From positions 90,267 to 154,266 of the forward strand of contig JAYWGM010000094.1 in assembly GCA_043778225.1 (NCBI GenBank): a DNA stretch of 64,000 bases. The letters are read 5' to 3'. Each line of letters begins with the position of its first letter. Position 1 is the stretch's first letter. The stretch comes from Deinococcales bacterium. GTDB lineage: Bacteria; Deinococcota; Deinococci; Deinococcales; JAAFIG01. The notes under the pieces were generated by a model. That model ran no database searches. It had not been told where the DNA came from and saw only the letters and a program-made list of their open reading frames with translations. A program made the translations under genes and the position numbers. Below, one piece after another: positions 1 to 64,000 of the stretch.

Positions 1-1218
1 CGTTCGATGGGCGAAGTTAAAGCCGAAGGCGCAACCCTGAACCAAATTCTGACGGTTTTACGTTTAGGGGCTTTCTTGAGTGTCATTCTGGTCTTATTTG
101 TGGCAACTCGCTACATCAGGCGGCAAGTGACTGGCTTGACCAGCAGCGCGGCTGGGTTGGCGGTTGGGCATCTGAACCAAGAACTCGGGCGGGTCGGGCA
201 AGACGAAATAGGGCGTTTGACGGCTTCGTTTCACGACATGGTGGCGTATCAGCGTGAAATGGCTGGGGTTGCCAATGCGATTTCTCGAGGTGATTTATCC
301 AAGTCAATCGAACCAAAATCCGAAACCGACGAACTTGGTGTGGCATTTGCGACCATGACCAAAAACTTGCGCGAGTTACTGAGCGCCGTTAATCAAGGCA
401 GTTCAGCCGTGGCGGCGGCTTCGACCCAAATTCTGGCAACTTCGGCACAACAAGCCAGTGGGGTGCATCAGCAAAGTGCGGCGGTGGCACAAACCAGTGC
501 TACCATCGAAGAAGTCCGCAGCAGTTCTGACCAAGCGGTTGGCATTGCGATGTTGGTCTCCGAAAGCGCCGCAAGCGCCTCAGAAGTTGCCACGGCTGGC
601 GTAGAAGCTGCCAACGAAGCCAATCAAGGAATGTCCGAGATTCGCGCTCGAGTCCAGCAGATTGCTGAAAATATTTTGGCGCTTTCGGAACAAACTCAAC
701 AAATTGGCGAAATTATTGCGACCGTCAACGATATTGCTGACCAGAGTAATTTATTGGCGCTGAACGCCGCCATCGAAGCCTCGAGGGCTGGCGACCAAGG
801 CAAAGGTTTTGCGGTGGTTGCCCAAGAAATTCGGCTGCTTTCCGAGCAATCTAAAGGCGCAACTGCCCAAGTCAAATCTATTCTTGGCGAAATCCAGCGT
901 GCCACCAACAGCGCCGTCATGACCACCGAGCAAGGGATTAAAGTCGCCGATGCTGGGGTGGACAGCATTGCCAAGGTGCTGAGTGTGATTGAGGGCTTAC
1001 AAGAAGCGATTCAACACGCTTCGCACAATGCCCAACTGATTTCGGCTTCAGTCCGTCAACACAGTGCTGGCATGGAACAAATCACTGGGGCAATGCAGAG
1101 CATTGGCAATGCCACCAAAGATAATTTATCGGGCGCTCAACACACCCGCGATGCCGCCCAAGAACTAGCGGCACTCTCGAGCCGTTTACGCGGTATGGTA
1201 GAGCAGTACCAGACTTAA
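1..1218 (+). CDS. Methyl-accepting chemotaxis protein (TM-HAMP-HAMP-signalling domain), probably 5'-truncated by the window edge
   Basis: Frame open from base 1; HAMP motifs DEIGRL and DELGVAF; hairpin tip [27 protein letters not shown]. Confidence 0.95.
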
Positions 1219-1309
1219 TGGTAGAGCAGTACCAGACTTAATGGTAGAGCAGTAACAGACTTAATGGTAGTGCAGTAACAGACTTAATGGTAGTGCAGTA
1301 ACAAACCTA
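1195..1309 (+). repeat. Five tandem 23-bp copies of the MCP 3' end
   Basis: Unit ATGGTAGAGCAGTACCAGACTTA starting at 1195, 1218, 1241, 1264, 1287, degenerating distally; no spacers. Confidence 0.95.
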
Positions 1310-1321
1310 GAGGTTAAAGCC

Positions 1322-3868
1322 GTGATTGATACCCACACCCTTGGACTTGAATTTGCCCTGCACCTCGAGGCATTGCAACAAGCCATTGATTTCTCAAGCG
1401 CCCATTTGGCACTGCACCGAGCAAGGGTTGCCGGCAGAGCCTCGGGGCATGAACTTGAGTTGTTTCTAAAAGCCCTCGAGTCAAACACAGCCACAGCGAC
1501 TACACCTTTAGAAACCGTCTGGCTCGAGGCTTGGACAGCCCATGGCTGGCGTGGCATGGCAGCACTTGAAGTGGCAACGCGGCTCGAGTCGTTGCGTGCC
1601 GCAACCGACCCAGACAGCGCCAAACTCGAGCTTCATCGGGCGCGGGTGGCATTGCAAAGTGCCAATACCAACGATGCCCTTGCAGGGTTTTTAGCCCAAC
1701 TCGAGGCTGGGGTATCTGCACCAGCCAATAACCAACAAGCGGCTGCGTGGCTCGAGGCGTACCAGCCACGCGACAGCGCCATACGGCAAATTTTTGATAA
1801 AGAACTCGCCGAGCGCCTTGTGGCACTGCGTCAAGCCAAAGACCCAAAGACCATGCGCCTTGAGTTGCACCGTTTGCGGGTGGCAGCCCGAGTGGTCGAG
1901 GATGCCCTCGAACCACAAATTTTACGTTTGGAGCGTGGCGAAAGCACCACCGTCAGCGACCCACGCCTCAAAGCAGCCCTGCCCGTGACTCGAGCCACCC
2001 CCGAGGTTCGCCCAGAAGATTCTCGACTGGATAAAGCCCCAAGTTTGGTTTCGCAAAGCATCATCCCGCCCGTCCAGACCCGTTCGACCGACAATGCGGC
2101 GACTTTGGATGGTTCGGCTCGAGCCGTTGCCCAGGAGAGCGTCCGTGTTTCGGTGGCGCGTTTGGATTCCTTATTGGCACAAGCGGGCGAACTGACGGTT
2201 GGGCGAATTCGCATCGAAGAACGGCTGCGCGATTTACGCGATTTATTAAGTCGGCGCAACTTGGAGCGTCGTAACTCGAGGCATTCACGCACCCTGCGGC
2301 GGCGTTTACAAAGTTTAGCCGAAGAAAACCGCGATGTCGCTTCGGTGCTGGGTTTACTCGAGACTGGCGAAGAGAGTACAAGGCGGGCGCTTGACCGCCT
2401 TGAGGATGTCTTAAACCGCTTAACTGGCGATTTGGCGCAATTGCGTACCGTCAACACGACCATCGAAGATGAAGTTTTGAGTGTGCGGCTCCTGCCTGCC
2501 GCGATGCTTTTTCCGCCGCTCGAGCGGTTGGTGCGCGACCTTGGTCAGCAACTTGGTAAGCAAGTGCGGCTGATTACTTTGGGTGGCAGCATCGGTATTG
2601 ACCGCAAAATTCTCGAGGGGCTGCGCGATCCCTTAATGCACATGATTCGTAATTCGGTAGACCATGGCTTGGAATTGCCGATTATTCGCCAAGAACTTGG
2701 CAAGCCTACCGAAGGCACAATTACTTTGTCGGTCAACTCGAGTGGTGGCATGGTGACGCTGCTGTTGTCCGATGATGGGGCTGGCATGAACGCGCAAAAA
2801 ATCCTGCAAAAAGCTGAGCAAAAAGGGATTATCCAAAGTGCTGCCAGCTACGACCCAAAACTGGCACTCGACCTGATTTTTGAACCCGGTTTTAGCATGG
2901 CAGCCGCCGTGACCGATGTTTCTGGGCGTGGCGTTGGCATGGACGTGGTGCGGCAAAATATCCGAGCTTTAAGCGGCACGGTTGGGGTTCAAAGTCAAAT
3001 CGGTCAAGGCAGCCATTTTGCAATGCGCGTTCCGGCACAACTCGCCACCGTGCGGGTTTTACTAGCGCGAGTCGGTCACGACACCTTTGCGATTCCAACT
3101 GCCAGCGTTGAACGTACTGGACGGGTCAAAGTCGAGGGGATTCATCAACTCGAGGGGCGCAGTGTGATTATTCTCGAGGGTCGTCCTGTGCCATTGGTCG
3201 AACTTGGTGGGGTCATGGATGTGCCATTTGAAGCTGGCGAGTCTTGGCAGCCTTATTTTATCCTGCGCCGCGACGACGACCGCTTGGCGTGTACTGTCGA
3301 CGCGATGCTTGGCGAACAAGAAGTGGTGGTCAAAAAGTTATCGTACCCGCTCGAGAAATTCGCGCCACTCGAGGGGGCGGCTGTGCTGGGCAGTGGGCAA
3401 CTGGTTTCGATTCTTGCCAGCACCCACTTAATCGAACGTGGCTTGCGCCGCGAAATTCGGGTACGCCGCGAACTCAAACTTGCGCCAACGATTGCGGCTC
3501 GAGTGCCACGAATTATGGTTGTGGACGACAGCATTACCAGCCGAACTTTAGAGCGCAGCATTCTCGAGGCGGCGGGTTTTGAAACCATCACGGCAGTTCA
3601 TGGCGCACAAGCCCTTGATTTTTTACGACGCGGCGAACACGTTGATTTGGTGGTCTCGGATGTCGAAATGCCAGAACTCGATGGCTTTGGGCTGACGGCA
3701 GAAATTCGCCGTGACCCACGCCTAGCGCAAATCCCCGTGATTCTCATTACCAGCCTAAACGCCCCAGAACACAAAGAACGCGGCGCAATGGCTGGCGCAG
3801 ATGCCTATATCGTCAAAGGAGAATTTGACCAAGGGGTCCTGCTCGAGACGATCAATCGGTTGTTATAA
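1322..3868 (+). CDS. cheA: Hybrid chemotaxis histidine kinase CheA (HPT-like, dimerisation, HATPase, CheW, REC)
   Basis: VRVSVARLDSL, LMHMIRNSVDHGLE, DDGAG, SGRGVGMDVV, CheW-like region, C-terminal REC (VVDDS, SDVEMP, YIVK). Confidence 0.95.
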   Translation: MIDTHTLGLEFALHLEALQQAIDFSSAHLALHRARVAGRASGHELELFLKALESNTATATTPLETVWLEAWTAHGWRGMAALEVATRLESLRAATDPDSAKLELHRARVALQSANTNDALAGFLAQLEAGVSAPANNQQAAAWLEAYQPRDSAIRQIFDKELAERLVALRQAKDPKTMRLELHRLRVAARVVEDALEPQILRLERGESTTVSDPRLKAALPVTRATPEVRPEDSRLDKAPSLVSQSIIPPVQTRSTDNAATLDGSARAVAQESVRVSVARLDSLLAQAGELTVGRIRIEERLRDLRDLLSRRNLERRNSRHSRTLRRRLQSLAEENRDVASVLGLLETGEESTRRALDRLEDVLNRLTGDLAQLRTVNTTIEDEVLSVRLLPAAMLFPPLERLVRDLGQQLGKQVRLITLGGSIGIDRKILEGLRDPLMHMIRNSVDHGLELPIIRQELGKPTEGTITLSVNSSGGMVTLLLSDDGAGMNAQKILQKAEQKGIIQSAASYDPKLALDLIFEPGFSMAAAVTDVSGRGVGMDVVRQNIRALSGTVGVQSQIGQGSHFAMRVPAQLATVRVLLARVGHDTFAIPTASVERTGRVKVEGIHQLEGRSVIILEGRPVPLVELGGVMDVPFEAGESWQPYFILRRDDDRLACTVDAMLGEQEVVVKKLSYPLEKFAPLEGAAVLGSGQLVSILASTHLIERGLRREIRVRRELKLAPTIAARVPRIMVVDDSITSRTLERSILEAAGFETITAVHGAQALDFLRRGEHVDLVVSDVEMPELDGFGLTAEIRRDPRLAQIPVILITSLNAPEHKERGAMAGADAYIVKGEFDQGVLLETINRLL

Positions 3869-3931
3869 CTCGAGACGATTAACCGCTTGTTGTAACTCGA
3901 GACGATTAACCGCTTGTTATAACTAGAAACC
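3842..3931 (+). repeat. Three tandem 27-bp copies of the cheA 3' end plus a partial fourth
   Basis: Copies at 3842, 3869 and 3896 all read LETINRLL-stop; CTAGAAACC (LET) at 3923. Confidence 0.95.
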
Positions 3932-4014
3932 ACTCGAGTCATACTCCCTTTGCTTTACTATCCAAAAGTCCATATCTCTTTTCCCTCCTCCTAAGGTACA
4001 CTCCCTAACGCTTT

Positions 4015-5154
4015 ATGCAGCCATCCAATCCCCAAAAACGAATCCGCGTCCTTGTTGTGGATGATTCCAGTGTGCAGCGTCGAATGCTGGTCAGTCTGCT
4101 TGAATTGGATGGTGGTTTTGAAGTCGTTGGGACTGCCAGCAACGGAGCAGAAGCTGTGCCAATGGCATTGCGCTTGCTGCCCGATGTGATTACCATGGAT
4201 TTACGAATGCCGATTATGGATGGTCTGGCTGCTTCTGAAGCCATTATCGAACAAGCCCCAATTCCAATTCTGATGGTCACTTCCAGTGTCTCTAAAGACG
4301 ACCAGCGTTTGGTTGCCAAAGCGATTGCGGCTGGGGTGCTGGCAATTATTGCCAAACCCAACATCCACACCGATACGCACGAGTTTTTAAGGATGGTGCG
4401 TGGTATCTCGAGGGTCAAAGTGATTCGCCGCAAACCACAACCCAGACCAGCCCCAAACGCCCTGTCACGCACCGTCATTGCTGAGCCGATTACGCTGCCC
4501 TTTGAACGGCGGGCAGGCTTGGTGGCGGCTCGACTCAGCCCCGCGATTTTGCCGAGCAGCATCTCAAGGGTCAATGTCATTGGGATTGCCTCGAGTACCG
4601 GTGGTCCGCAAGCCCTCGAGCCACTTTTAACCCGCTTGCCGAGCGATTTTCCTGTACCAATTATTATTGTGCAGCACATTGTCGAGGGTTTTGCTGCCAG
4701 TCTGGTCGAGTGGCTGCGCCCGTTGTGTGCTTTATCAATCGAACTTGCGCCAATTGGACAAGCCGTGCGCCCCGGTATTTGGATTGCTGGCGGCGGTCAT
4801 CATCTGGTGGTGCGCGAAGGACTTTTTCATTCGAGTATGGAAATGCCCGTCTCGGGACAGCGCCCCAGTGGTACGGTGCTGTTTCGCAGTCTGGTGCGCG
4901 AATACCGCAACAATGCAGTCGGTGTGGTTTTATCGGGCATGGGCGACGATGGAGCAGCCGGACTCGAGATGATGCACAAAGCGGGTGCAGCCATCCTTGC
5001 CCAAGACGAAGCCACCAGTGTGATTCACAGTATGCCAAGCAGTGCCATTCGTAAAGGTGTGGTGCATCATGTCATGCCACCGCTCGAGATTGCCAATACT
5101 TTAATCGATTTTGCCAGACGTGCCAGACCAGATTGGCAGCCACCACCGCCTTGA
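4015..5154 (+). CDS. cheB: Chemotaxis response regulator protein-glutamate methylesterase
   Basis: REC (VVDDS, MDLRMP) plus methylesterase triad motifs ASSTGGP, VQH, SGMGDDG. Confidence 0.95.
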   Translation: MQPSNPQKRIRVLVVDDSSVQRRMLVSLLELDGGFEVVGTASNGAEAVPMALRLLPDVITMDLRMPIMDGLAASEAIIEQAPIPILMVTSSVSKDDQRLVAKAIAAGVLAIIAKPNIHTDTHEFLRMVRGISRVKVIRRKPQPRPAPNALSRTVIAEPITLPFERRAGLVAARLSPAILPSSISRVNVIGIASSTGGPQALEPLLTRLPSDFPVPIIIVQHIVEGFAASLVEWLRPLCALSIELAPIGQAVRPGIWIAGGGHHLVVREGLFHSSMEMPVSGQRPSGTVLFRSLVREYRNNAVGVVLSGMGDDGAAGLEMMHKAGAAILAQDEATSVIHSMPSSAIRKGVVHHVMPPLEIANTLIDFARRARPDWQPPPP

Positions 5155-5171
5155 GCCTAGCCAAAGGTACA

Positions 5172-5219: not shown

Positions 5220-5250
5220 AGATAAAAAAGAATCTTTTGGGGAGAACAAC

Positions 5251-14146: not shown

Positions 14147-15121
14147 ATGAAAGCCATTGTCGCTACAAAATACGGAACACCAGATGTCCTCGAGCTTCAA
14201 GAAATGACAAAACCCACGCCCAAGGATAACGAAGTTTTGATTAAAGTCCTTGCAACTTCGGTCAATGCCGCCGACTGGCATTTGCTGCGCGGCGACCCGT
14301 TTATGATTCGTTTACTGTACGGACTGTTCAGCCCAAAAAATACGATTCTCGGAGCTGATATTGCCGGACAAGTCGAAGCCGTCGGTCAAGATGTCAAGCG
14401 TTTTCAAGTCGGTGATGAGATTTTTGGCGATAATGCCAATGGTGGGTTTGGTGGGTTTGCCGAGTATGTCTGCGTTCAAGCCGATGGATTTGTATTAAAA
14501 CCAAAATCCCTGACTTTTGAGCAAGCCGCAGCCGTGCCAATGGCAGCCGTGACTGCTCTGCAAGGGCTGCGTACACTCGGTCAGATTCAATCAGGACAAA
14601 AAGTTTTAATTCATGGTGCGTCTGGTGGTGTAGGCACATTTGCTGTGCAAATCGCCAAGTCGTTTGACACCCAAGTCACGGCGGTCTGTAGTGCAACAAA
14701 AGTCGAAATGATGCGCTCGCTAGGCGCAGACCATGTGATTGATTACAATCGAGAAGATTTTAGCAAAAACGGTGTGCAGTACGACCTCATCCTAGCTGCC
14801 AACGGAAATCGGTCTATTTATGATTACAAACGGGCATTAAGTCCAAAAGGCATTTATGTGATGACCGGAGGTTCTATGCGGCAAATCATGCAAAGTCTGC
14901 TGCTTGGACCGCTTATTTCAATGACAGGAACACAAAAAATGCTTGGTTTACAAGCCGCTCCAAATCAAAAAGATTTAGCCTTTATCAATCAACTGCTCGA
15001 GACTGGCAAAGTTGTCCCCGTTATGGATCGGAGTTATCCACTAAACCAAGTTCCTGACGCATTGCGATACCTAGAACAAGGACACGCCAAAGGAAAAGTG
15101 GTCATTAGCCTTGCAACATAG
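14147..15121 (+). CDS. NAD(P)-dependent medium-chain dehydrogenase/quinone oxidoreductase
   Basis: SVNAADW, VLIHGASGGVG, GADHVIDY, GHAKGKVV. Confidence 0.93.
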   Translation: MKAIVATKYGTPDVLELQEMTKPTPKDNEVLIKVLATSVNAADWHLLRGDPFMIRLLYGLFSPKNTILGADIAGQVEAVGQDVKRFQVGDEIFGDNANGGFGGFAEYVCVQADGFVLKPKSLTFEQAAAVPMAAVTALQGLRTLGQIQSGQKVLIHGASGGVGTFAVQIAKSFDTQVTAVCSATKVEMMRSLGADHVIDYNREDFSKNGVQYDLILAANGNRSIYDYKRALSPKGIYVMTGGSMRQIMQSLLLGPLISMTGTQKMLGLQAAPNQKDLAFINQLLETGKVVPVMDRSYPLNQVPDALRYLEQGHAKGKVVISLAT

Positions 15122-16181: not shown

Positions 16182-17942
16182 TTACAAGGCTTTGAATTGC
16201 TCGAGCCAAGATTTGACAACTGCAAAGCCGCTTTCCCAGAATTTTGGGTCTTTGGTATCTATGCCCAGTTCTGCGAGTAAAACGGCTGGACTGGCTTTGT
16301 TGCCACTGGCAAGAAAACGCTTGTATTTTGGTGCAAACGTGCTTGCTCCCTCGAGTTTATATTGTTGGTACAGCGCCAAGACCAGCAGCATTCCAAAAGC
16401 ATAGGAGTAACAGTAGAAACGGTAGTTCAGGGTGTGCGGAATGCTGCTCCATGCCCAAGCATCGCCGTCGGTAAATTGGACGGCATCGCCATAAATATCT
16501 TTTAGGGTCTCGAGCCAAAGTTCACTAAACCGCGCACTCGAGACGACACCTTTGCCGCGTTCCTCGTGGGCTTTAAGTTCCCATTGCGTAATCTGGACTT
16601 GCCTAAAAAGAGTGCTGGCGGCTTTCTCGAGCAGACCAGCCAATATCTCGCGTTTTTGAGTTGGTGTGGCGGTCTCGAGCAGCACATCGGCAAGCAGCAT
16701 CTCGGCAAAGGTACTGGCGGTTTCAGCAAGGCTGGTGGTGTGACCCGAATTGACGGGTTTTTGAATACGGCTTAACTCGTGGTGTACACCATGTCCGAGT
16801 TCATGCGCCAGCGTAAAGACATCATCTATGCGTTCGTTATAATTGAGTAAAATAAAGGCGGGGTCGTTGGGGTTTGAACCCCAGCAGTACGCGCCGCCAC
16901 GTTTGCCTGCACGCGGCAGGACATCAATCCGCCCATTAAAAAAGTCAGCCGCAAGGTCTTTAATGCTTGGGTCAAGGCGTTCAAAGGCTTTAAGCACAAG
17001 CTCTTTACCTGTGGCATAATCAAAGGTTTCATCCACCGCTTCCAGAGGCGCAAGCACATCAAAACTTGAGAAGTCGGTAATACCGAGTATGTTGGCTTTG
17101 AGCTTAAAGAATTCTTGAATCACGCCGACGTTTTTAGCGGTGGCATCAAAAAGCATCTGTACATCTTCACGGGTAATCCCGTCGTTGATGACCGTAGGCT
17201 CGAGCAAATGCGGATAGCCGCGCAGTTCGAGCGTTTCTTGTTTGTAATCTTGAAAAACGGTATTAAAAATATAACTTAAAACGTGTTCGCGCTCTTCAAA
17301 AGCAGCAAAAAGTGCGGTTGTGGCTTCTCGGCGGATATTTCTATCGGCTCGAGTCCGCAGCGCCCGCACTTGGTCGAGGGTTAAAAGTTTTTCTTGTCCA
17401 TCTATGGTAAAAGGGATTTTAATGTTGCTGCAAATCTCGCCGTACAACTGTACCCAAGCCTGAATACCCGTTAAGTTTTTTTGACGCAATACTTGTTCCT
17501 CGAGTTCAGAGCGCTGATAAGGCATGGATTTACGCGCCTCAGACAAAAAATAAGTGTAATCGGATAATTCTGGGGCAGCCGACCAGGCGCTAAAAACGTC
17601 ATCGGGTAAAGCGGCTAACTCGAGCCACGCAAAAGTGAGGGTATTAGAGATTTTAGCGTGGATACCACGCAACATATCCAGCAAGGCTTTTGCCTCGAGA
17701 TTAGCCGTATCCAAGTCAAAACTCAGTCGGGCAAACCAGACTGGGCGGTTGGCAAGTTTGGAGATGCTATAAAGCTCCTCAAGGGCGGTTAAAGCGGCTG
17801 TCGGCTCGAGGCTCGAGAGTTTACTTTTATAGGCAGTTGCAAAGGCATCAGCACGGCTTTGGGCAGTTTTAAGGTCGGTGTGCAGTTGTGGGTTGGTTAG
17901 GCTCTGGTATAACAACCCAAGATTCCAAGTTAAATCATTCAT
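16182..17942 (-). CDS. M3 family oligoendopeptidase F
   Basis: GKRGGAYC, TLAHELGHGVH, AETASTFAE; start from TACACT-N7-ATG. Confidence 0.93.
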   Translation of the reverse strand: MNDLTWNLGLLYQSLTNPQLHTDLKTAQSRADAFATAYKSKLSSLEPTAALTALEELYSISKLANRPVWFARLSFDLDTANLEAKALLDMLRGIHAKISNTLTFAWLELAALPDDVFSAWSAAPELSDYTYFLSEARKSMPYQRSELEEQVLRQKNLTGIQAWVQLYGEICSNIKIPFTIDGQEKLLTLDQVRALRTRADRNIRREATTALFAAFEEREHVLSYIFNTVFQDYKQETLELRGYPHLLEPTVINDGITREDVQMLFDATAKNVGVIQEFFKLKANILGITDFSSFDVLAPLEAVDETFDYATGKELVLKAFERLDPSIKDLAADFFNGRIDVLPRAGKRGGAYCWGSNPNDPAFILLNYNERIDDVFTLAHELGHGVHHELSRIQKPVNSGHTTSLAETASTFAEMLLADVLLETATPTQKREILAGLLEKAASTLFRQVQITQWELKAHEERGKGVVSSARFSELWLETLKDIYGDAVQFTDGDAWAWSSIPHTLNYRFYCYSYAFGMLLVLALYQQYKLEGASTFAPKYKRFLASGNKASPAVLLAELGIDTKDPKFWESGFAVVKSWLEQFKAL

Positions 17943-18234: not shown

Positions 18235-18274
18235 CACTGCCCTACCTTTGATACCGATGTATAAGGAGATTTCT

Positions 18275-20683
18275 ATGAGGAGAAAGTCGTTCGGATTTAT
18301 TCCAGCCCTGACCGCCGTGAGTCTGGTTGCGCTGATGGTTGCTTCAGCACAAGTCACATTGCAAAAAATTGCTGGCGCAGCCAAAGACATTGCCATTGGC
18401 GCGAATAATCAGATTTGGATTATTGGAACAGACAACACCGCCTACAGCCGCAGCAATAACACTTGGAAAAAACAGAATTCGACGAGTCTAAGCCGAATTG
18501 CTGTAGACCCCCAAGGCAACGCTTGGGCAATTGCTAAGTCTGATAATCGGATTGTGCGTTTTAATAAAAATGCGTGGAGCAATTTTGCAGGGAAAGCCCA
18601 AGATATTGCAATCGGAGCAAACGGCACGGTTTTTAGTGTCAGCCTAACAGGCGATGTCCTGCCGCTTGTTGGCTCGAGTTGGGGCAAGAGTATTGGCAGT
18701 GCTTCACAAGTCGCGGTTGACCCCAAAGGCAACCCGTGGACAGTTGGTGCAAATGGTGAAATCTCGAGGTTCGTGAATGGCAAACCGCAAAGCATTCCTG
18801 GACAAGCCAAAAGCATTGCAATTGCGGCGAACGGCGCGGTTTATGTGCTTGGGGCAGATTTTACTCGAGTTTGGCGTTGGGATGGTGGTACGGGTTGGAA
18901 TGTGGCTGCCTCTGTGCCAGATGCGACTCGAGTGGCGACCGATAAAAGTGGGACGCTGTTTGTGCTCAATAAAAAAGGTGAAATCCAACGGGTTGTGGCT
19001 GCGCCCACGCCACCAGCGCCACCAACCCCAGATGCTCGAGCCAATTTTAATAATCTGGTACTAGGTTTACCCAATTGGGAGGTGTTCTCGCCGACCCTGC
19101 CAGACCAAAACCGTGCGGTTGGTGGCAGTAGCCGTGCGGTGCAAGCTGTGGAGAGAACCGCCTATGACTGCACCACCACACCGTACAGCATCACCGAAAC
19201 TCCTGACAAAATCGTGACCTTTAGCCCCGACGCGAATGTGCTTTGGGCTGGGGCTTTGCTGCAAGGCAAGGGCTATAAACTTGGGATTGGTTCACTCAAA
19301 GAACTGCCGATTCGGCAACGCGCCCCGCTTGGTTTATCGGTCAGTTTACAAACGGCTAATAACAGCGCCACAATTCCCAACCCAGATAACATCAGTGTTG
19401 GGGCTGCCATTGGTAGCATCATCGAAAACGCCGAGCGAAACGGGATTAAACCAGCCACCAGTATAACGTACCTCAAAACCGATAGTTACTCGGCAGAACA
19501 AATTGCTTTGTCGCTTGGTATTTCGGCTAAATACATGGGCAGTTCGGCAAAAGCCACTTTTAACTTTAACCGCAGTGCCAACGAGCGCACCATCACCGCG
19601 ATTTTTAGAGAAACAGCCTTTACGGTTTCAGTGGCAGCGCCGCAAATTGCCTCGAGTTACCTGAGTAACACCTTTAGCCAAGCCGACCTCGATGCCCAAA
19701 TTGCACAGGGGAACATCGGCAGCGATAACATTCCAGTCTATGTCTCGAGTATTACCTATGGACGAATGCTGATGTTTTCTTTAACCTCGACTGCCAGCAC
19801 CCAAGAAATGAGTGCCACTCTGGACGCGCTCTACAAAGGCGGCACGATCGAAGTTGAGGGGAATTTATCGGCGGCGCAGAAAAGAGTTTTGCAGAATTCG
19901 AGAATTAGTGTTGCGACCATCGGTGGGGATTCTGATAATGCACGGCGTTTAATCGCTTCGGGCAGATTAGCCGATTACTTTAGTCAAACCAATTCGCTTA
20001 GCACTTACAAACCCGTTTCTTATGAGATTCGTAATCTTGGCGATGGCAGCATTGCCAAACTCTCCGAAACCAGCAATTACAACGTCACACAGTGCAGTGC
20101 CTTAACCGCCAAAAAAGTTGGTGAGCGCTGGGTCAATGTTATCGATGGGATTTACCTTAATAACGCAGGCGACGGCGAAACGGGCGATATTTATGGTCTT
20201 GGGGTTCTCGAGGGTGCGACTGGTACGATTTTTAATATCTCGGAAAACGCTCCTGTGGTCATGAAAACAGGTTCGGTCTTTGGTGCAAACCGCCAAATTA
20301 CAGTCCCCGGCATCAACACCTTTATAGGCGACGGGCGTTTTGACACCAATAACAATTTTGTGGTCAGAGATTACTTTAATGCCGCTCCAAAAAACCTTGA
20401 TTTTATTGTCTTCTTAGTTGACCGAGACTCGAGGGTGCTTGATGATGATGATGCAATTATTTTCCGAGGCGACAACAACCCGATTATTCTGAGTAACCCA
20501 TTTGGTGGCAGCGACAAATTACAAGCTGTTCGGGTGGACGGTGCGGGCAGAGGCACACCGGGCAGTGCCACGGTCATTTATCGTCAGAAGAAACTCTGTA
20601 ATTTACTTGAAGACCCAATCAGTAAACAAATTGTTGCCGAAGAAAATTGTTTATCGGCTTCGCTTGCCATCAGTCAGCCGTAA
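18275..20683 (+). CDS. Secreted tectonin beta-propeller fused to a thiol-activated (cholesterol-dependent) cytolysin-like domain
   Basis: Sec signal; six DIAIG/IAVDP.G..W repeats; Pro linker; LWAGALLQG, PVYVSSITYGR, ATIGG, PVSY.IRNL. Confidence 0.85.
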   Translation: MRRKSFGFIPALTAVSLVALMVASAQVTLQKIAGAAKDIAIGANNQIWIIGTDNTAYSRSNNTWKKQNSTSLSRIAVDPQGNAWAIAKSDNRIVRFNKNAWSNFAGKAQDIAIGANGTVFSVSLTGDVLPLVGSSWGKSIGSASQVAVDPKGNPWTVGANGEISRFVNGKPQSIPGQAKSIAIAANGAVYVLGADFTRVWRWDGGTGWNVAASVPDATRVATDKSGTLFVLNKKGEIQRVVAAPTPPAPPTPDARANFNNLVLGLPNWEVFSPTLPDQNRAVGGSSRAVQAVERTAYDCTTTPYSITETPDKIVTFSPDANVLWAGALLQGKGYKLGIGSLKELPIRQRAPLGLSVSLQTANNSATIPNPDNISVGAAIGSIIENAERNGIKPATSITYLKTDSYSAEQIALSLGISAKYMGSSAKATFNFNRSANERTITAIFRETAFTVSVAAPQIASSYLSNTFSQADLDAQIAQGNIGSDNIPVYVSSITYGRMLMFSLTSTASTQEMSATLDALYKGGTIEVEGNLSAAQKRVLQNSRISVATIGGDSDNARRLIASGRLADYFSQTNSLSTYKPVSYEIRNLGDGSIAKLSETSNYNVTQCSALTAKKVGERWVNVIDGIYLNNAGDGETGDIYGLGVLEGATGTIFNISENAPVVMKTGSVFGANRQITVPGINTFIGDGRFDTNNNFVVRDYFNAAPKNLDFIVFLVDRDSRVLDDDDAIIFRGDNNPIILSNPFGGSDKLQAVRVDGAGRGTPGSATVIYRQKKLCNLLEDPISKQIVAEENCLSASLAISQP

Positions 20684-46242: not shown

Positions 46243-46328
46243 AGGGTAAAAAGGTGAAAGGTAAAAAAGGTCAAAAGTAAAGCCAGACCTTTTAACCTTT
46301 TGTCCTTTTGCCCTTTTTACCTTGCCCT
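46243..46328. repeat. Short degenerate AAAAGGT repeats followed by their complement
   Basis: Purine-rich 7-9-nt units, then CCTTTT units, forming an imperfect hairpin. Confidence 0.7.
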
Positions 46329-48068
46329 TCACACCATCACCGTTTCCAGTCCGACACGGCGCAATTCGGCGAAACTCGAGCTTGGGTTGTTGGTCAGGTC
46401 TTGTCGCTTGCCAAACTCAAGAATTTTGCCTTGTTGCAATATCAAAATATGGCTGGCGCGTTCAACGGTTTTTAGGCGGTGAGCAATAATAATTGCGGTG
46501 CGGTTCTCGAGCAGTTTATCGAGCGCGGTCTCGAGGCGGTGTTCGGTGGCTGGGTCAAGGCGGGCGGAGGCTTCGTCAAGAATAATCAGTTTGGGGTCGC
46601 GCAGGAAGGCTCGAGACAGCGCCACAAGCTGGGCTTCGCCCGAGGACAGAGAATCGGCAGTCAGAGGCGTTTCTAAGCCGTTTGGTAAGGCGGTGTACCA
46701 ATCGGATAGTCCAAGGGTGTGCAGTGCCTCGAGCAACTTGGTGTCCGAGATGCTGGTATCAAAAAAAGTCAGGTTATCGCGCAGACTGGCTTGGAAGAGT
46801 TGGACATCTTGGGTCACAAGCGCAATACCTGTTCTAAAAGACTCGAGTTGGTATTTTTTGAGGTCGTGACCGCCAATTTTAATTGTGCCGCTTTGTGGGT
46901 CATAAAACCTAAACAAAAGCCTTGCCAATGTGGTTTTTCCACTGCCAGTACGCCCGAGCAAGCCAAGAATGCTGCCAGACTCGAGTTGCAAACTGATGTT
47001 CTCGAGGACTTGTACATTGTCTTCGTAAGCAAAAGAAACTTTTTCCAGATTAACAGCTAAACCACGTGGCGCATTTGGTAACTCGAGTGTGCCATTTTGG
47101 ACATTGGGCGTAAAGTCAAACAATTCTTTAACCCGAGCAATACTGGCTTCAGCGCGTTGTAATTCCTGCATATGATGCCGAAAATTCTCGATGGGTTGCG
47201 CCACCATCCAAGCGTAGTGCATCAGCATATAGACCGCGCCAAGGCTCAGCACACCTTCACGGTACAGGCTCGAGCCAAAGCCGTAGGTCAGGGCATCGGC
47301 AGTTACCCAAAAGATGGTGCTTGCGCCCCAGACAATACTGCCTTTGAGGTTGGCGGTAAAACGCACTTGGAAAAGCGCCCGCATCTCGAGCCTCATGCGG
47401 CGCATTGCCCAAGCGACCGCACCATTGCCGCGAATATCCTCGGTGGCGTTTAAGACCTCGCCCATAAAACCATAAAACTGCGCGGCTTTTTCGCGCTCTT
47501 GTTGCCACGCATTGGCGAACCTCGAGGTCAGGGTTAAAAGGATGATGCCAAAAATCGAATAGACCGTAAATGCCGCCCCAAGCCGCCAATCTTGAATCGT
47601 TAGGGCAACCAGCACCCCAAGCAGCAATAAAAAATTCCCACCAAGGCTGACCACAAAACTCGAGAAGAAACCCGACAAAGCATTAACATCGCCATCTATG
47701 CGTTCAATCATCTCGCCAGGTGGTCTGGACTTATGAAAACCCATGCCCAAATTTAAGGAATGCGCCGCTAAATCGGCACGTAAGGCATTGGTGGCTTGCC
47801 ACGCGACTTCGTTGGAAATATAAGCCGCCAACGCCCGAAAGCCACTCGAGACCAGCGCCGCCACAATAAAAAGCACGGCTAGTAAAGTCAGGTTGCTCGA
47901 GTCAGCCGCATTTTGGGTCGCATCCACGAAGCGCCGTGCAATTTGTGGGTTAAGAATTTGTAGCCCTATCCCAAGCAGTAAAAATAAGCTCATCCACGCG
48001 ACTCGAGAACCCTGCGGAATCAGATAGCGCCGCAGGAGAATCCAGAATTGCGCGATTGGCAGCTTCAT
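46329..48068 (-). CDS. ABC exporter half-transporter (partner subunit)
   Basis: Six TM helices, GRTGSGKTT, LSSGEAQ, ILDEA. Confidence 0.93.
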   Translation of the reverse strand: MKLPIAQFWILLRRYLIPQGSRVAWMSLFLLLGIGLQILNPQIARRFVDATQNAADSSNLTLLAVLFIVAALVSSGFRALAAYISNEVAWQATNALRADLAAHSLNLGMGFHKSRPPGEMIERIDGDVNALSGFFSSFVVSLGGNFLLLLGVLVALTIQDWRLGAAFTVYSIFGIILLTLTSRFANAWQQEREKAAQFYGFMGEVLNATEDIRGNGAVAWAMRRMRLEMRALFQVRFTANLKGSIVWGASTIFWVTADALTYGFGSSLYREGVLSLGAVYMLMHYAWMVAQPIENFRHHMQELQRAEASIARVKELFDFTPNVQNGTLELPNAPRGLAVNLEKVSFAYEDNVQVLENISLQLESGSILGLLGRTGSGKTTLARLLFRFYDPQSGTIKIGGHDLKKYQLESFRTGIALVTQDVQLFQASLRDNLTFFDTSISDTKLLEALHTLGLSDWYTALPNGLETPLTADSLSSGEAQLVALSRAFLRDPKLIILDEASARLDPATEHRLETALDKLLENRTAIIIAHRLKTVERASHILILQQGKILEFGKRQDLTNNPSSSFAELRRVGLETVMV

Positions 48069-56958: not shown

Positions 56959-57023
56959 GACTCGAGCCTAACGGGTTTTTGGTTTTTTTATTGTAACGCC
57001 ACGACTTTTTTTAAGTACATCCC

Positions 57024-57146
57024 CAAAATGTTTCAGCGTTCTTTGCTGAAACATTTTGCGACTAATAGGAGTAAGGAAAGCGTATCTCACGCCGTAATGA
57101 TAGATTTGCCGTTTTTTGAAAAATCTAAAATGCAGGCGTGAGATAT
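57024..57146 (+). other. Structured intergenic element, copy B
   Basis: 14-bp perfect hairpin, linker CGACTAATAGGAGTA, 11-bp stem TATCTCACGCC/GGCGTGAGATA enclosing TTTGCCGTTTTTTG. Confidence 0.6.
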
Positions 57147-58352
57147 TTAAGGCTCGAGGTTGAGTTGGCGCAATTTTGGGGCATAAAAAGCCGTAGCAGC
57201 CACCACCAAAAGCGTCACAATGCCACCCATCCAAACACTACGGCTTGTGCCGAGTAATTTTGCAGCCACACCACTCTCGAGCGCCCCAAGCTCGTTGCTT
57301 GCGCCAATAAAAATACTCGAGACACTGGCAATTCTGCCGCGCATATGCTCAGGCGACTCTAAACGCACAATACTTTTACGAATCACCATGCTGTAGCCGT
57401 CAAAAACCCCACTAAGCATTAAAGTAAAAAGGGTCAGATAAAAATTGGTGGATAAGGCAAAAACAATCATCGTACAACCAAATGCCGCCACACAAAGCAT
57501 AAAATTGCGCCCAGCATTCTTGCCTGGCGGATGGTGGGCGGCAAACAACATGATACCCAAAGCCCCAACCGATGGCGCTGCCACCAAGAAACCAAAACCA
57601 CTTGCACCAACATTAAGAATTTCGTTGGCAAAAATTGGCAGCAGGGCAATTGCGCCGCCAAATAAAACCGCAAATAAATCAAGTGCCATCGAACCCAGTA
57701 AAATTTGATTGCCGGTCACAAATTTGACCCCTAAGGCAATACTCTCGAGCATCCGTTCGCCTTTGGGTGGAATTGGCTTGGGCTTTTTGGCAATTAAAAA
57801 CACACACAAAAGCGCCACAAAGTACAACCCTGCAATCAATAAAAATGTGTGGCTCGAGCCAAGTGCATCAAAAGCAAAGCCACCCAAGGCAGGACCGACA
57901 ATACCGCAACCAATCCAAGAAGCTGACAGCCAACTCGAAGCCACGATTGTTAGGTGCTTTGGTACAACCTGAGCCTCAAGGGCGGCTAAAGCTGGACTCG
58001 AGAAACCACGCGCAATTCCAATAATAAAGACAATGCTGTACAACGACACCAAACTCGAGTTACCAAATAAAGCAAACAAAACACTGGCTAAAATCATCGT
58101 TAAAGTGGTGACCAGCACAATCCCACGCCGCTCGAGGCGGTCTGCAACAAAGCCACCAATGAGCGCTAAACCAAGGGCTGGAATGGCTTCGACCAAGCCC
58201 AGTAAGCCCAATGCCAAGGGGTCTTTGGCAAGTTGATAGACTTGATAACCAATCACCGCCCCAAGCGCACTAGAAGCCAGCACACTCGAGGCAACCGCAA
58301 ACAACAAGGCTCTGACTTCTGGTAACTCTAAAGGCGCATAAGGTGAACTCAC
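57147..58352 (-). CDS. MFS transporter
   Basis: About 12 TM helices, GG.VADR..RR, LDLFAVLFGG..ALLP, MRGR. Confidence 0.93.
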   Translation of the reverse strand: MSSPYAPLELPEVRALLFAVASSVLASSALGAVIGYQVYQLAKDPLALGLLGLVEAIPALGLALIGGFVADRLERRGIVLVTTLTMILASVLFALFGNSSLVSLYSIVFIIGIARGFSSPALAALEAQVVPKHLTIVASSWLSASWIGCGIVGPALGGFAFDALGSSHTFLLIAGLYFVALLCVFLIAKKPKPIPPKGERMLESIALGVKFVTGNQILLGSMALDLFAVLFGGAIALLPIFANEILNVGASGFGFLVAAPSVGALGIMLFAAHHPPGKNAGRNFMLCVAAFGCTMIVFALSTNFYLTLFTLMLSGVFDGYSMVIRKSIVRLESPEHMRGRIASVSSIFIGASNELGALESGVAAKLLGTSRSVWMGGIVTLLVVAATAFYAPKLRQLNLEP

Positions 58353-58484
58353 GAGTCATATCTTGACATAAGGACACAGGCTCAAGTGCATAAACTTGAC
58401 GAATAGAGAATACCGTGCTACTATTATCGCTATCAGCAGCCGAAAAGGGCTGTTTTTTTATGGCTCAAAACTTTCGGCACAACT

Positions 58485-60472: not shown

Positions 60473-61426
60473 ATGAATTTACTGGGCTTACACCATATTT
60501 CGGGCATCACTGGCAAAATTGAACAAAACCATGTGTTTTATACCCAGACGCTAGGGATGCGCTTGGTCAAAAAAACCGTCAATCAAGACGATACTCGAGC
60601 TTATCATCTGTTTTATGCCGACCAGCGGGGTTCGCCGGGTTCGGATGTGACTTTTTTTGACTGGGCAAGCGCCGCCCCAGAGCGCTTTGGCAACCACAGC
60701 ATCAGCCGTACTGGACTGCGGGTTAGCTCGAGCGATAGCCTGATGTGGTGGCACGAGCGCCTGAGCAATGCGGGTATCCAAACCAGCCAGCCAATCGAGC
60801 GCCATAACCGTTTAACGCTTGATTTTTCCGACCTCGAGGGACAGCGTTTAAGCCTGATTGCTGACTCGAGTTTGGACAACATTGTGCCTTGGGCAGCCCA
60901 AATTCCAAGCCAACACGCAATTCGTGGTTTGGGCGCGGTCGTGCTGACCGTACCACAAGCCAAACCAACCGCCGAGGTCTTAACCAAAGCCATGAACATG
61001 AAACAAATTGGCGAGTATGCCTCGCCGAATAACGACAAATATGCAGTCTCGGTTTACCAAATGACCCAAGGTGGCAGTGCCACCGAAGTGCATCTGGAAG
61101 TGCGCCCAGATTTGCCACCCGCCAGACCGGGCGCAGGTGGAATGCACCATGTGGCTTTTCGTGTCCCAAACGCTGCTGCCCACGCTGCATGGCTCGAGCG
61201 ACTGAGCAGTTTTGGCATTCGCCACTCGGGCTTGATAGACCGTTACTACTTTAAGGCGGCGTATTTCCGCGAACCCAACGGGATATTGTTTGAAATCTCG
61301 AGCGATGACCCCGGTTTTGCGACCGACGAATCCGAGGATACGCTTGGGCAGCGCCTCGCCCTGCCGCCTTTTCTCGAGAATCGGCGTGAGGAGATCGAAA
61401 AGCACTTAAAGCCACTCGAGTTCTAA
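60473..61426 (+). CDS. Ring-cleaving dioxygenase (VOC/MhqO-like)
   Basis: GLHHI, LVKKTVNQDD..YHLFY, HHVAFR, DRYYF..YFREP.G.LFE. Confidence 0.93.
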   Translation: MNLLGLHHISGITGKIEQNHVFYTQTLGMRLVKKTVNQDDTRAYHLFYADQRGSPGSDVTFFDWASAAPERFGNHSISRTGLRVSSSDSLMWWHERLSNAGIQTSQPIERHNRLTLDFSDLEGQRLSLIADSSLDNIVPWAAQIPSQHAIRGLGAVVLTVPQAKPTAEVLTKAMNMKQIGEYASPNNDKYAVSVYQMTQGGSATEVHLEVRPDLPPARPGAGGMHHVAFRVPNAAAHAAWLERLSSFGIRHSGLIDRYYFKAAYFREPNGILFEISSDDPGFATDESEDTLGQRLALPPFLENRREEIEKHLKPLEF

Positions 61427-61445
61427 GGCTCGAGCAGCCAATTTC

Positions 61446-62543
61446 TTAATCCTCGGCTGGACTTGCCACACTGACCAGTGCATCGCCTTTGCCGCTTCTA
61501 ATCGCATCAAAAACTTTCTTACGCAGTTCTTCCTCGAGTGCTGGACGGGCTTTGATGTACTCGACGACTTTTTCTTTGCCCTGCCCAATGCGTTCGCCGT
61601 TGTAGCTAAACCACGAACCAGCCTTCTCGAGAATTTCAAGGCTCGAAGAAAGGTTCACGAGGTCGTTGAGTTGGTCTATGCCTTTACCAAAGTAAATCTG
61701 AATTTCGACTTCTTTGAAAGGCGGTGCAACTTTGTTTTTGACCACTTTGATTTTAACGTTGTTACCAACTGCATCGTTGCCAATTTTTATCGGTTGCCCA
61801 ATGCGGCGAATATCCAAACGCACACTGGCATAGAATTTTAAGGCTTTGCCACCCGTGGTGGTTTCTGGGTTGCCATACATCACGCCGATTTTTTCGCGGG
61901 TTTGGTTAATAAAAATCATCGTGGTGTTGGATTTATGTAAAATCGCGGTCAGTTTTCGCAGCGCTTGACTCATCAAACGGGCTTGCAGACCGGGCAGGCT
62001 GTCGCCCATTTCGCCTTCGATTTCGGCTCGAGGCACAAGGGCGGCTACTGAATCAATCACAATCATGTCCACTGCACCCGAGCGCACCAAAAGCTCGGCA
62101 ATCTCGAGGGCTTGTTCGCCCGTATCGGGCTGGCTCACCAGCAGTTCGTCGGTATTGACTCCAAGGGCTTTGGCATAGACTGGATCGAGGGCGTGTTCGG
62201 CATCTATAAATGCCACCGTGCCGCCCATTTTTTGGCATTGTGCCGCGATGGTTAGGGTCAGGGTGGTTTTACCGCCCGATTCTGGTCCGTAAATTTCAAT
62301 GATTCGCCCTTGCGGCACGCCGCCTACGCCGAGCGCTAAATCTAGGCTCATGCTGCCAGTCGGAATCACTTCGACTTGCAGCTTGCTCGAGGCATCAAGG
62401 CGCATAATCGCGTTTTTACCAAAGGCTTTTTCGATTTGGCTCATGGCGCTGTCGAGGGCTTTTTTCTTGTGGACAGCAAGTTGGGCGGCGGACATATCGG
62501 AAGTATCTGGTGCGGCTTCTTTTTTCTTGGTATTTGCGGACAT
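61446..62543 (-). CDS. recA: Recombinase A
   Basis: [45 protein letters not shown]. Confidence 0.99.
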
Positions 62544-62609
62544 GATTGTTTTCCTTTTCGGGCGCTGGGCTGCGAGGTTTGGGCTGTAGGGATTGGCGGC
62601 GAGTAATTT

Positions 62610-63839
62610 CTAGGTTTTCATGGCTCTCCAAAGCGCTCCAAGCGCGGCAAAAGCAGCCCGTTCTTTCATCGTGCGGCGGTCTCCAGCCACCACAAGCGTC
62701 TGCTCGAGCATTGTGCCAATTGGCGTAGCAATCGCCACAAAAAGTGTACCGGCGGGCATTGAATCGCCAAAAGTGTTATCGGCTGCGCCCGTGCAAGCTA
62801 AGCCCCAGTCTGCGCCAAACTGTGAACGAGCCAGCAGCGCCAAAGATTGGCTGGTCTCGAGGCTAATAGCACCGTACTGCTCGAGAATTTCAGCTTTAAC
62901 ACCCAAACGAATTTTGGCTTCTTTTGAGTAAGCAACAGTTGCGCCCATAAAAACGTTGCTTGAGCCTTTTGGATTGGATAATTCGTCGGCAATAATGCCA
63001 CCCGAAATACTTTCGATAACCGCCACGGTTTGGTTTTTTTGGCGCAGTTGTTGGAGAATAATCTCGGGCAGGGTTTGGTCATCGTGACCGTAAATAAACC
63101 CCTCGAGTTTTTCTTCTACGGCTTTCTGGCTACTTTGGGCAATCGCTTCGGCGGCTTCTAAGGTATCGGCACTGGCTGCCACACGGACATGAACTCCATC
63201 GCGGCGTGCATATGTGCCAATGCTTGGGTTCTCGAGTTGGGCAAACTCACCTAGACGCTCAGCAAGGTGACTTTCGCCGATGCCCACGGTGCGAAAAGTC
63301 TTAAAGTAAAAACCGCTCTGTGGCAATTCTAAACGGGGCAAAACCTGTTCTGTCCACATCCGTTTCATTTCTCGAGGCGGTCCAGGCATGGCAACAATAA
63401 TCTTTTTGGTATTTGGCACACGCACAAACCAACCGGGGGCTGTACCAACTGGGTTAGCAATGGCTTTGGCACTTTTAGAAACCCAAGCCTGTTTAATGTT
63501 CTGCTCGGGAAAACTGCGCCCTCGAGCCTCAAACCAAGCCCGTAAAGTCGCCAGATATGCTTGGTCTATTACCGCTTCTTCTTGAATGCACGCCAGAATG
63601 CCTTCGCGGGTCAAATCGTCGTCGGTTGGTCCGAGTCCACCGCCCAAAATCACCAAGTCAGACCGCCCCAAGGCTCGAGTAATCGCTTCTTCTAAACGCT
63701 CGAGGTTATCACCGACGGTGGTTTTCCAGTGCATAAAAACGCCGCGATTTTTCAATTCCTGCGCCAAAAAAGCTGCATTAGAATCGGTTATCTCGCCCAT
63801 CAGTAATTCTGTGCCGACACTGATAATTTCTGCTAACAA
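62610..63839 (-). CDS. cinA: CinA (competence/damage-inducible, NMN deamidase-related) protein
   Basis: AEIISVGTELL.G, VGDN, GGLGPT.DD.TRE, GTAPG; TTG start 8 nt after AAGGAG. Confidence 0.93.
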   Translation of the reverse strand: MLAEIISVGTELLMGEITDSNAAFLAQELKNRGVFMHWKTTVGDNLERLEEAITRALGRSDLVILGGGLGPTDDDLTREGILACIQEEAVIDQAYLATLRAWFEARGRSFPEQNIKQAWVSKSAKAIANPVGTAPGWFVRVPNTKKIIVAMPGPPREMKRMWTEQVLPRLELPQSGFYFKTFRTVGIGESHLAERLGEFAQLENPSIGTYARRDGVHVRVAASADTLEAAEAIAQSSQKAVEEKLEGFIYGHDDQTLPEIILQQLRQKNQTVAVIESISGGIIADELSNPKGSSNVFMGATVAYSKEAKIRLGVKAEILEQYGAISLETSQSLALLARSQFGADWGLACTGAADNTFGDSMPAGTLFVAIATPIGTMLEQTLVVAGDRRTMKERAAFAALGALWRAMKT

Positions 63840-63844
63840 CGTAA
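63828..63844 (-). promoter_or_regulatory. RDRM-like 17-bp palindrome (DdrO site) overlapping the cinA start
   Basis: TTACGTTGTTAGCAGAA fits the Deinococcus radiation/desiccation response motif pattern. Confidence 0.75.
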
Positions 63845-63858
63845 TCACTCCTTTTAAT

Positions 63859-63887
63859 TTTATACCAGACAAATGAAGGTTTGTCAA
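63859..63887 (-). promoter_or_regulatory. Sigma70 promoter of cinA-recA
   Basis: TTGACA-N17-TATAAA on the minus strand; contains GACAAA-N6-TTTGTC. Confidence 0.7.
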
Positions 63888-63905
63888 AGTCTAACCCTAA
63901 AAAGG

Positions 63906-64000
63906 TAGGGCAAACGCACCAAGTTGAGCTTGCTGTACCCTAAAGAATGATTATCAATATCATCGAACATTTCAGTACCCTCGAAGACGCTCGTCGTGAC
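63906..64000 (+). mobile_element. Left end of an ISAs1-family IS; transposase starts at 63947 and runs off the window
   Basis: End sequence TAGGGCAAACGCA; N-terminus MIINIIEHFSTLEDARR resembles the ISAs1 HF..L.DPR motif. Confidence 0.7.

Follow-up and report, generated by a model that had tools for sequence, protein, structure and literature searches.

We analyzed a 64-kb stretch of DNA (positions 1 to 64000, here called the window) from the genome G000 of an uncultured relative of Deinococcus and found that the hexamer CTCGAG is a genuine highly iterated palindrome (HIP), written into long-resident DNA and kept there. It is a second and denser case of a HIP, in a phylum other than the cyanobacteria. 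The cyanobacterial word HIP1 (GCGATCGC) has been unexplained for three decades, partly because it was confined to one phylum. The original prediction, made on the window, had proposed CTCGAG as an analogue of HIP1, and the analogy held: CTCGAG is a bare palindrome that occurs in all reading frames and in spacers, is lineage-wide and is positionally held. What is new here is that a separate lineage, represented by the genome G264, carries the same excess while its RecA sister, G237, does not. By analogy with known systems, CTCGAG may be a self-DNA tag amplified via natural transformation or homologous recombination, a reading to which we assign a probability of about 0.35.

The G000 assembly comprises 4.03 Mb in 107 contigs with a guanine-plus-cytosine (GC) content of 48.7% and is 89% complete. 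DNA of G000 occurs in two biofilm sequencing runs and is nearly absent from a third run. The organism was placed by coded groups, a RecA tree and the two best RecA relatives that bear a name, both of them Trueperaceae metagenome-assembled genomes (MAGs) with 65-66% identity. No 16S gene was found in the assembly, so there is no rRNA-based placement, and no Rfam families were found within the window.

The window contained 418 copies of CTCGAG, one per 153 bp. None of 100 dinucleotide-preserving shuffles of the window reached this number (mean, 9.30; standard deviation, 2.93; largest, 18), and the excess was 45-fold. About 32 copies had been counted by hand in the first 5 kb and a high density had been claimed for the whole window; the hand count was exact (32 in bases 1-5000), and the density was even at 15-33 copies per 4 kb throughout. 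No foreign-looking island was found in the window, and the longest gap was the following.

14195..14995, no strand: longest CTCGAG-free stretch of the window (flanking sites 807 bp apart; GC, 0.47).

The whole genome held 24,877 copies where base composition predicts 931, a 26.7-fold excess and an average of one per 162 bp. CTCGAG made up 3.7% of the sequence and was the top hexamer, threefold ahead of runners-up that were only its own overlapping pieces. The hexamer CGATCG was present in 182 copies.

The unit of the repeat is the bare hexamer, since the flanks of CTCGAG were near random from -12 to +12 in G000. One exception was CCTCGAGG, which was scarce (243 copies), with 1,117-2,203 copies for each of the other 15 NCTCGAGN words. 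No conserved sequence was found beyond the core, which argues against a repetitive extragenic palindromic (REP) element or a miniature inverted-repeat transposable element (MITE). The closest spacing that the genome permits occurs in the window.

17805..17817, no strand: CTCGAG-N-CTCGAG, two sites 7 bp apart.

Genome-wide, a spacing of 7 occurred 123 times; a spacing of 6, which would create GAGCTC, did not occur and is the second exception to random flanks. The spacing of sites was essentially Poisson (coefficient of variation, 1.00), and no periodicity was found up to 1.2 kb, with the pair correlation staying level near 1.04 between 65 bp and 1.2 kb. Pairs less than 20 bp apart were depleted to 0.43 genome-wide but only to 0.75 in non-coding DNA, and this short-range depletion looks mainly like a coding effect. 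On these grounds regular spacing was dropped as a mechanistic clue.

The survey across the phylum that had been proposed earlier was run over 301 genomes (one order, five coded families; the tally takes in G276, which is flagged as unpublished and on which no claim is based). The trait was lineage-wide in the family of G000 (f1) and graded elsewhere. All 19 genomes of this family, from five genera, carried 4.3-6.8 CTCGAG per kb. The density was high throughout the GC range of 0.44-0.63 in the stretches read and therefore does not follow composition; G006, with a GC of 0.44, had 4.75 per kb in a 20-kb sample. Outside the family, members of the genus g7 show avoidance of CTCGAG, with mostly 0.01-0.2 per kb, and the only genome at the full level among the 301 was G264, with 24,536 copies in 3.5 Mb (7.0 per kb). 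The suggestion that the excess may already be known in relatives stood insofar as every family relative has it. No published account of a CTCGAG excess was found in full-text searches for the word, which mostly covered journals without subscription.

In the RecA tree the family was monophyletic (support, 95/98), and its sister was family f3, which belongs to the same order; G264 fell inside f3 as the sister (100/100) of G237. The recA contig of G264 contained 29 CTCGAG in 4 kb, which indicates that its signal is not a binning artefact. In a 116-kb sample of G264 we found 7.26 CTCGAG per kb, 8.5-fold over the synonymous shuffle described below, with 9.0 per kb in spacers; Leu-Glu was 2.26-fold over-represented, and 82% of Leu-Glu was encoded as CTCGAG. 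G237 has the same GC (0.50), yet 400 kb of it (G237:C1:20001-420000) contained 0.26 CTCGAG per kb, 0.9-fold of its shuffle, and only 1 of 31 aligned G264 CTCGAG sites was also CTCGAG in G237. A recent transfer between G264 and G000 was rejected, as no segment above 74% identity occurred in the 116 kb sampled. A Leu-Glu fossil of a lost HIP in G237 was also rejected: the observed-to-expected ratio was 1.31 in G237 versus 1.01 in G020, but it was 1.35-1.58 in G031 and G021, and the signal is too weak for a verdict. Glu-Leu in G237 was 0.94-fold. The trait must have arisen twice or else been lost several times, and its behaviour is that of a discrete, heritable property.

We then compared coding and non-coding DNA of G000, using a crude open reading frame (ORF) caller of our own (3,534 genes, 88% coding) for the genome-wide frame counts and the coding/non-coding split. 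Coding DNA had 6.17 sites per kb and non-coding DNA 6.16, and the density was even along genes. Within the called genes 13,132 sites were in the Leu-Glu frame and 4,410 and 4,489 in the other two; in the window, the 34 ORFs with Pfam support (43,197 bp) had 162 sites as CTC-GAG, 53 as xCT-CGA-Gxx and 72 as xxC-TCG-AGx. In spacers (GC, 0.45) CTCGAG was 31-fold above their own composition. Segments of 40-44% GC held 5.35 per kb in non-coding DNA versus 4.22 in genes, a difference to be expected when coding constraint opposes a force that acts uniformly.

These frame counts and equal densities agree with the earlier claim that CTCGAG occurs in all three frames and in intergenic DNA and is not protein-driven. 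The original prediction had also named a control for codon and dipeptide usage as the analysis that could overturn it. In this control, synonymous codons were shuffled within each gene (20 shuffles), which keeps the proteins, and hence the dipeptides, together with the codon usage of the gene, which is itself inflated by CTCGAG. The shuffled genes contained 2,351 ± 23 CTCGAG versus 22,031 observed, so the enrichment persisted at 9.4-fold; a codon-order shuffle left 1,040.

It could be argued that codon or dipeptide usage, or usage inherited from a high-GC ancestor, yields CTCGAG as a by-product and that no force acts at the DNA level. Many high-GC lineages indeed have 1-3.5 CTCGAG per kb (2-3.5 in high-GC relatives), partly through favoured CTC and GAG codons, and G031 and G021 were 1.7-2.0-fold above their own synonymous shuffle. 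However, GAGCTC, made of the same codons, has only 24 copies in G000, G006 keeps its density at low GC, and the equal coding and non-coding density, the excess over the synonymous shuffle, the spacer excess and the protection of four-fold degenerate sites (below) refute the by-product reading, whose probability we consider close to nil.

The CTCGAG bias exhausts most synonymous opportunities and then alters proteins. In G000, 69% of Leu-Glu peptides were encoded as CTCGAG, as were 56% of [SPTA]-Arg-[VADEG] and 42% of x-Ser-[SR] peptides. Leu-Glu was 2.30-fold over-represented in the proteome (19,018 versus 8,261), while Glu-Leu was at 0.96. A gene of the window illustrates the placement of sites.

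61446..62543, minus strand: recA, a window ORF with 5 CTCGAG copies.

One of the five falls on a universally conserved Leu-Glu-Ile. Of five further family genomes compared, four have CTCGAG at the same site, as do G264, G236 and G021; it is not CTCGAG in G013, G237, G020, G133, G030 and G031. The 68 tRNA genes of G000 contained 6 CTCGAG, versus 1.3 expected by composition and 32.6 at the genome density. Four of the six CTCGAG-bearing tRNA genes belong to one tRNA array (contig C19:9937-12769).

To follow the turnover of sites, we used orthologs of the window in genus members, with 85.6 kb of G003 as the reference (G003 and G005, 94% identical; G001, 92%; G004, 85%; G000, 78%). Changes on the G003 and G005 branches were polarised with G001 or G004; the results refer to MAG consensus sequences of four related genomes and to orthologs of this window alone. 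Four-fold sites had changed at 16 of 257 positions inside ancestral CTCGAG versus 936 of 6,232 elsewhere (odds ratio, 0.38; Fisher p = 2.9e-5), which is 2.4 times fewer changes. The other site classes were likewise protected about twofold, with 5/129 versus 604/6,515 at other third positions, 10/772 versus 634/25,899 at first and second positions, and 3/90 versus 167/2,488 at non-coding positions. When the classes were pooled, 34 of 1,248 positions had changed in CTCGAG versus 2,341 of 41,134 outside (p = 1.3e-6).

Across the deeper split (79% overall identity), 289 of 368 CTCGAG sites of G003 (78.5%) were CTCGAG at the same position in G000, versus 28.8% identity for other hexamers (odds ratio, 9). 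This long-term retention exceeded the prediction from the short-branch rates, which fits one-off mutants tending to revert. Four single-step gains of CTCGAG were observed, all transitions, versus about 1.0-1.3 expected, an excess that is suggestive only. Among the 608 branch-sites of the four branches, 27 had lost the word, compared with 13 gains, which speaks against a simple equilibrium. The clade of G003, G005, G001 and G004 has about 5.2 CTCGAG per kb versus 6.2 in G000, and the fixation force may be weaker in that clade. CTCGAG is actively maintained at the DNA level: the bias applies to the hexamer as a whole, both inside and outside coding DNA, and slows the loss of sites. It is highly probable that a fixation bias for CTCGAG exists.

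Such maintenance could reflect direct selection, if CTCGAG were bound by an abundant nucleoid or chromosome-organising protein and kept by purifying selection. The conservation of position far above background, the equal density in genes and spacers, the even density along genes and the persistence over the whole GC range are in line with direct selection, and Xu et al. took a similar conservation of HIP1 as selection (PMC5861425). On the other hand, the spacing of CTCGAG is essentially Poisson and without periodicity up to 1.2 kb, selection per site across about 25,000 sites is necessarily very weak, and no candidate binding protein was found. We consider direct selection unlikely.

The one-off neighbours of CTCGAG in G000 bear on how the word is favoured. 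All 18 were 18- to 190-fold rarer than CTCGAG, including transversions at positions 1 and 6, and they were near the number that composition predicts for each (0.13-1.42); at position 1, the three variants, of which two are transversions, were at 0.84-1.39. At equilibrium, this pattern requires bias at every position and for every change type. That all six positions are favoured fits whole-word recognition rather than repair of one mismatch type, and T:G-specific very-short-patch repair does not fit. No skew from deamination of 5-methylcytosine was found either (TTCGAG, 1,369; CTTGAG, 1,375; CTCGAA, 1,327; CTCAAG, 1,387). A footprint of Vsr repair was accordingly rejected, as no Vsr was found in G000, G010 is without a C5 methylase, and transversion neighbours are as depleted, relative to CTCGAG, as transition ones.

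Methylases were surveyed with five Pfam families across the 19 family genomes. G000 is extremely rich, with about 24 matches; most of its methylase genes, several of low GC among them, hold 2-8 CTCGAG per kb, and low-GC ones carry 2.7-5.1 per kb. Repertoires varied widely, and no methylase ortholog group common to the 19 genomes was visible in these families: G010 (91% complete) had no C5 methylase, G013 (a single contig) had seven matches (one C5, two D12, four gamma-class and no N6_N4), and G002 had almost none. The XhoI endonuclease family (PF04555) was absent from all 19 family genomes. Of 201 genomes in the order, 6 had it; family f4 accounted for 5 (among 23 genomes), and f2 had a single broken copy. 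Its conserved neighbour in these relatives is a 340-residue N6_N4 methylase, for which G000 has no ortholog, only motif-level matches (33-43% over 50-74 residues). With the endonuclease absent from the family and its partner methylase without a G000 ortholog, CTCGAG does not behave as the target of an XhoI-type restriction system. XhoI and PaeR7I-type restriction-modification systems recognise the same word, and other members of the order do encode an endonuclease of this family; however, restriction normally depletes its word, as in g7, whereas the family of G000 is enriched in it.

The original prediction had linked the palindrome to DNA methyltransferases, and here it lost ground: there was no shared ortholog group, no XhoI family, no Vsr and no deamination skew. 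We consider the link weakened by these results, though it may still hold, since MAGs are incomplete, unrelated methylases can share a specificity and specificity is unreadable from sequence. A link to repair or recombination, which had also been suggested, is conjectural. As a separate observation, G000 encodes a TaqI-like gamma-class methylase of 650 amino acids with a TaqI_C domain (contig C65:15245-17197), for which Pfam and NCBIfam give no specificity. Beside it is an ORF of 264 amino acids with no family and, by eye, a nuclease-like D...E-x-K motif. Methylases resembling the TaqI-like one were seen in G010, G001, G003 and G014.

The main rival to the tag reading is Elhai's ratchet. An orphan CTCGAG methylase would mark sites on the nascent strand and direct repair to the parental strand, so that word-creating errors are fixed and word-destroying errors reverted, and the word may lack function. 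The ratchet predicts bias at each word position and protection of existing sites, as observed. It would act on any long-replicating DNA, and low-GC methylase genes do carry CTCGAG; the abundance of methylases in G000 is also in its favour, and the model was devised for alternate HIPs (PMC4390886). Against it are the lack of a visible shared methylase (G010, G013 and G002 each lack one or more classes or nearly all matches), the lack of a G000 ortholog of the XhoI-partner methylase, and the equal transition neighbours at both cytosines, which bear no deamination mark. In addition, the ratchet saturates at about one site per kb (PMC4390886), six times below the density in G000. We regard the ratchet as possible, if doubtful.

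GAGCTC, the mirror word of CTCGAG, was present in 24 copies in G000, versus 931 by composition and 367 by a Markov expectation, and in 2 copies within the window. It numbered 0-25 copies in all but three of the 18 other family genomes (the three being G002, with 114; G012, with 161; and G010, with 568) and 30 in G264 versus 384 in G237. GAGCTC is thus nearly gone wherever CTCGAG is extreme. SacI-type restriction was rejected as the cause of this loss, since only 6 of the 19 family genomes had RE_SacI; it was missing from G264, from the g3 and g4 genomes and from all eight genomes of g1, the genus of G000.

Because CTCGAG is raised about 27-fold and GAGCTC nearly erased on two separate RecA branches, f1 and G264, and neither holds in G237 at equal GC, a single sequence-specific machinery that can be gained or lost, possibly independent of methylation, might convert near-matches to CTCGAG chromosome-wide and write about three Leu-Glu per gene. 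We put this forward tentatively and judge it rather unlikely. To our knowledge, no mechanism that converts near-matches to one word chromosome-wide has been characterised.

Other palindromes are avoided in G000 as well. GGCC was present in 131 copies (0.009 of expectation), GATC was at 0.13, and about 30 hexamer palindromes had fewer than 50 copies (GGCGCC, 3; GACGTC, GGGCCC and AGGCCT, 1 each). The window contained no GGCC, GGCGCC, CTGCAG or TTCGAA. The avoided palindromes vary by genus, and G013 and G010 do not avoid GGCC and GATC.

CTCGAG is scarce in DNA that appears to be imported. G000 has 19 CTCGAG-free gaps longer than 1.5 kb, mostly of low GC (0.31-0.47), and 18 genes longer than 900 bp without CTCGAG versus 1.4 expected. 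Its short repeat families contained no CTCGAG in about 19.6 kb. The youth of the repeats can explain most of the missing sites, as just 2-7 would be expected in copies of 10-25% divergence by a rough hand estimate. Copies of these repeats lie in the window.

57011..57150, no strand: copy of a MITE-like interspersed repeat of about 140 bp, with no CTCGAG within and CTCGAG on its flanks.
58381-58469 and 46243-46329: further pieces of MITE-like repeats, with many copies in G000 and genus members.

In the largest short repeat family of G000, 45 of 131 intervals were at contig ends, and a piece of about 80 bp of the MITE-like repeats recurs in G264 with 83-87% identity. A scan of viral contigs for three close CTCGAG sites gave, among the matches listed, mainly high-GC phages whose CTCGAG reflects codon use; the one mid-GC phage candidate among them (L277) was rejected because it had no similarity to G000 and did not avoid GATC.

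A density-dependent self label could account for such a distribution: a defence or degradation system would spare CTCGAG-dense DNA and attack CTCGAG-free phage, plasmid or imported DNA. The low-GC, foreign-looking islands and short mobile repeats without CTCGAG fit a self label, as does the extreme restriction pressure indicated by GGCC and by the many 6-bp palindromes with fewer than 30 copies. However, no PDDEXK_1 nuclease domain and no candidate effector were found in G000, and the CTCGAG-free islands and repeats persist in that genome. We consider a self label very unlikely.

In the tag reading, CTCGAG would be recognised during natural transformation or homologous recombination, at a step that handles DNA in a sequence-specific way. 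Cells would preferentially take up or incorporate DNA or alleles with CTCGAG, and the tag would spread by molecular drive. The reading draws on an analogy with uptake sequences, with the methylated RAATTY of Campylobacter and with recent work on HIP1. Like the DNA uptake sequence (DUS) of Neisseriaceae and the uptake signal sequence (USS) of Pasteurellaceae, CTCGAG is a family-wide over-represented word with a non-protein force behind it, in genomes that encode ComEC. Uptake sequences mould proteomes (PMC2817400), and CTCGAG likewise reshapes peptides. HIP1 has been put forward as an uptake signal (PMC13756078), and methylated HIP1 lifts transformation more than 100-fold (10.1101/2024.09.10.611283). 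DNA uptake by Campylobacter jejuni requires methylated RAATTY, a short word of palindromic type that marks the organism's own DNA for transformation (PMC10046745); RAATTY, unlike CTCGAG, is of ordinary frequency and has a known methylase, whereas CTCGAG is amplified 27-fold with no methylase assigned.

ComEC (PF03772), the only competence gene searched, was found in 18 of the 19 family genomes, the exception being 79% complete. No receptor gene adjoins comEC on its contig, which is only 4,958 bp long.

Several observations weigh against a tag. The organism is uncultured, and the role is proposed by analogy, while the uptake preference for DUS and USS is proven. Known uptake words are 9-12 bases long, not palindromic and present about once per kb, as are DUS and USS, whereas CTCGAG is a 6-bp palindrome present once per 160 bp. 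The Deinococcus and Thermus control genomes also have ComEC, as do relatives without CTCGAG, and its presence discriminates nothing; we know of no uptake word in Deinococcus and Thermus, which are competent. No candidate reader protein for CTCGAG was identified, and PF12705 (PDDEXK_1, the AddAB/RecB-type nuclease) had no match in the 89% complete G000, while it was present in 11 of 14 control genomes searched. In the G003 clade single-step losses outnumbered gains (18 versus 4), and the short-term protection of CTCGAG was limited to about 2.4-fold. The coupled near-absence of GAGCTC is not predicted by an uptake or recombination tag. Finally, a fixation bias by itself fits drive, biased repair or selection alike. 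A Chi-type recombination signal was rejected, since without a PDDEXK_1 domain G000 has no known partner to read it.

Set beside HIP1 and the alternate HIPs, CTCGAG is likewise a short, hyper-abundant palindrome in all frames and spacers and across a lineage. As with HIP1, its positions are conserved between genomes, it is scarce in imported DNA and its function is unsettled. It differs in phylum and in word, with 6 bp rather than 8. HIP1 is 15-300-fold over expectation (PMC5861425) at a density of roughly one per kb (PMC4390886), compared with about one per 160 bp for CTCGAG. Elhai described an accompanying methylase for each HIP (PMC4390886), and none was found for CTCGAG with the five Pfam families in the 19 genomes. 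Xu et al. reported periodicity of HIP1 at 10-90 kb (PMC5861425), which lies beyond the scale of up to 1.2 kb tested for CTCGAG. The one-off variants of CTCGAG are only mildly biased toward the outer positions (6,184/13,793), and the near-erasure of the mirror word along with the excess is a further difference from HIP1.

The window also contains features apart from the palindrome.

7-5154, plus strand: chemotaxis cluster that encodes CheB, a methyl-accepting protein and a CheA-like kinase in fusion with CheW and receiver domains.
18248-20683, plus strand: ORF of 811 residues with a tectonin domain and a thiol-activated cytolysin domain, an unusual pairing.
63903-64000: end of the window, about 97 bases that also form, without a mismatch, the ends of several further contigs; this probably reflects an overlap in the assembly graph or the boundary of a repeat, not biology.

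For the family, these results mean that the bias has written about 11,000 extra Leu-Glu dipeptides into the proteome of G000 and that the scarcity of CTCGAG is a practical marker of imported DNA in family genomes. The persistence of this HIP across GC contents of 0.44-0.63 with no visible conserved methylase sets a limit on the methylase rule. G264 and G237 form a natural on/off sister pair of equal GC, which together with the 19 positive genomes makes the writer of a HIP tractable via gene-content comparison.

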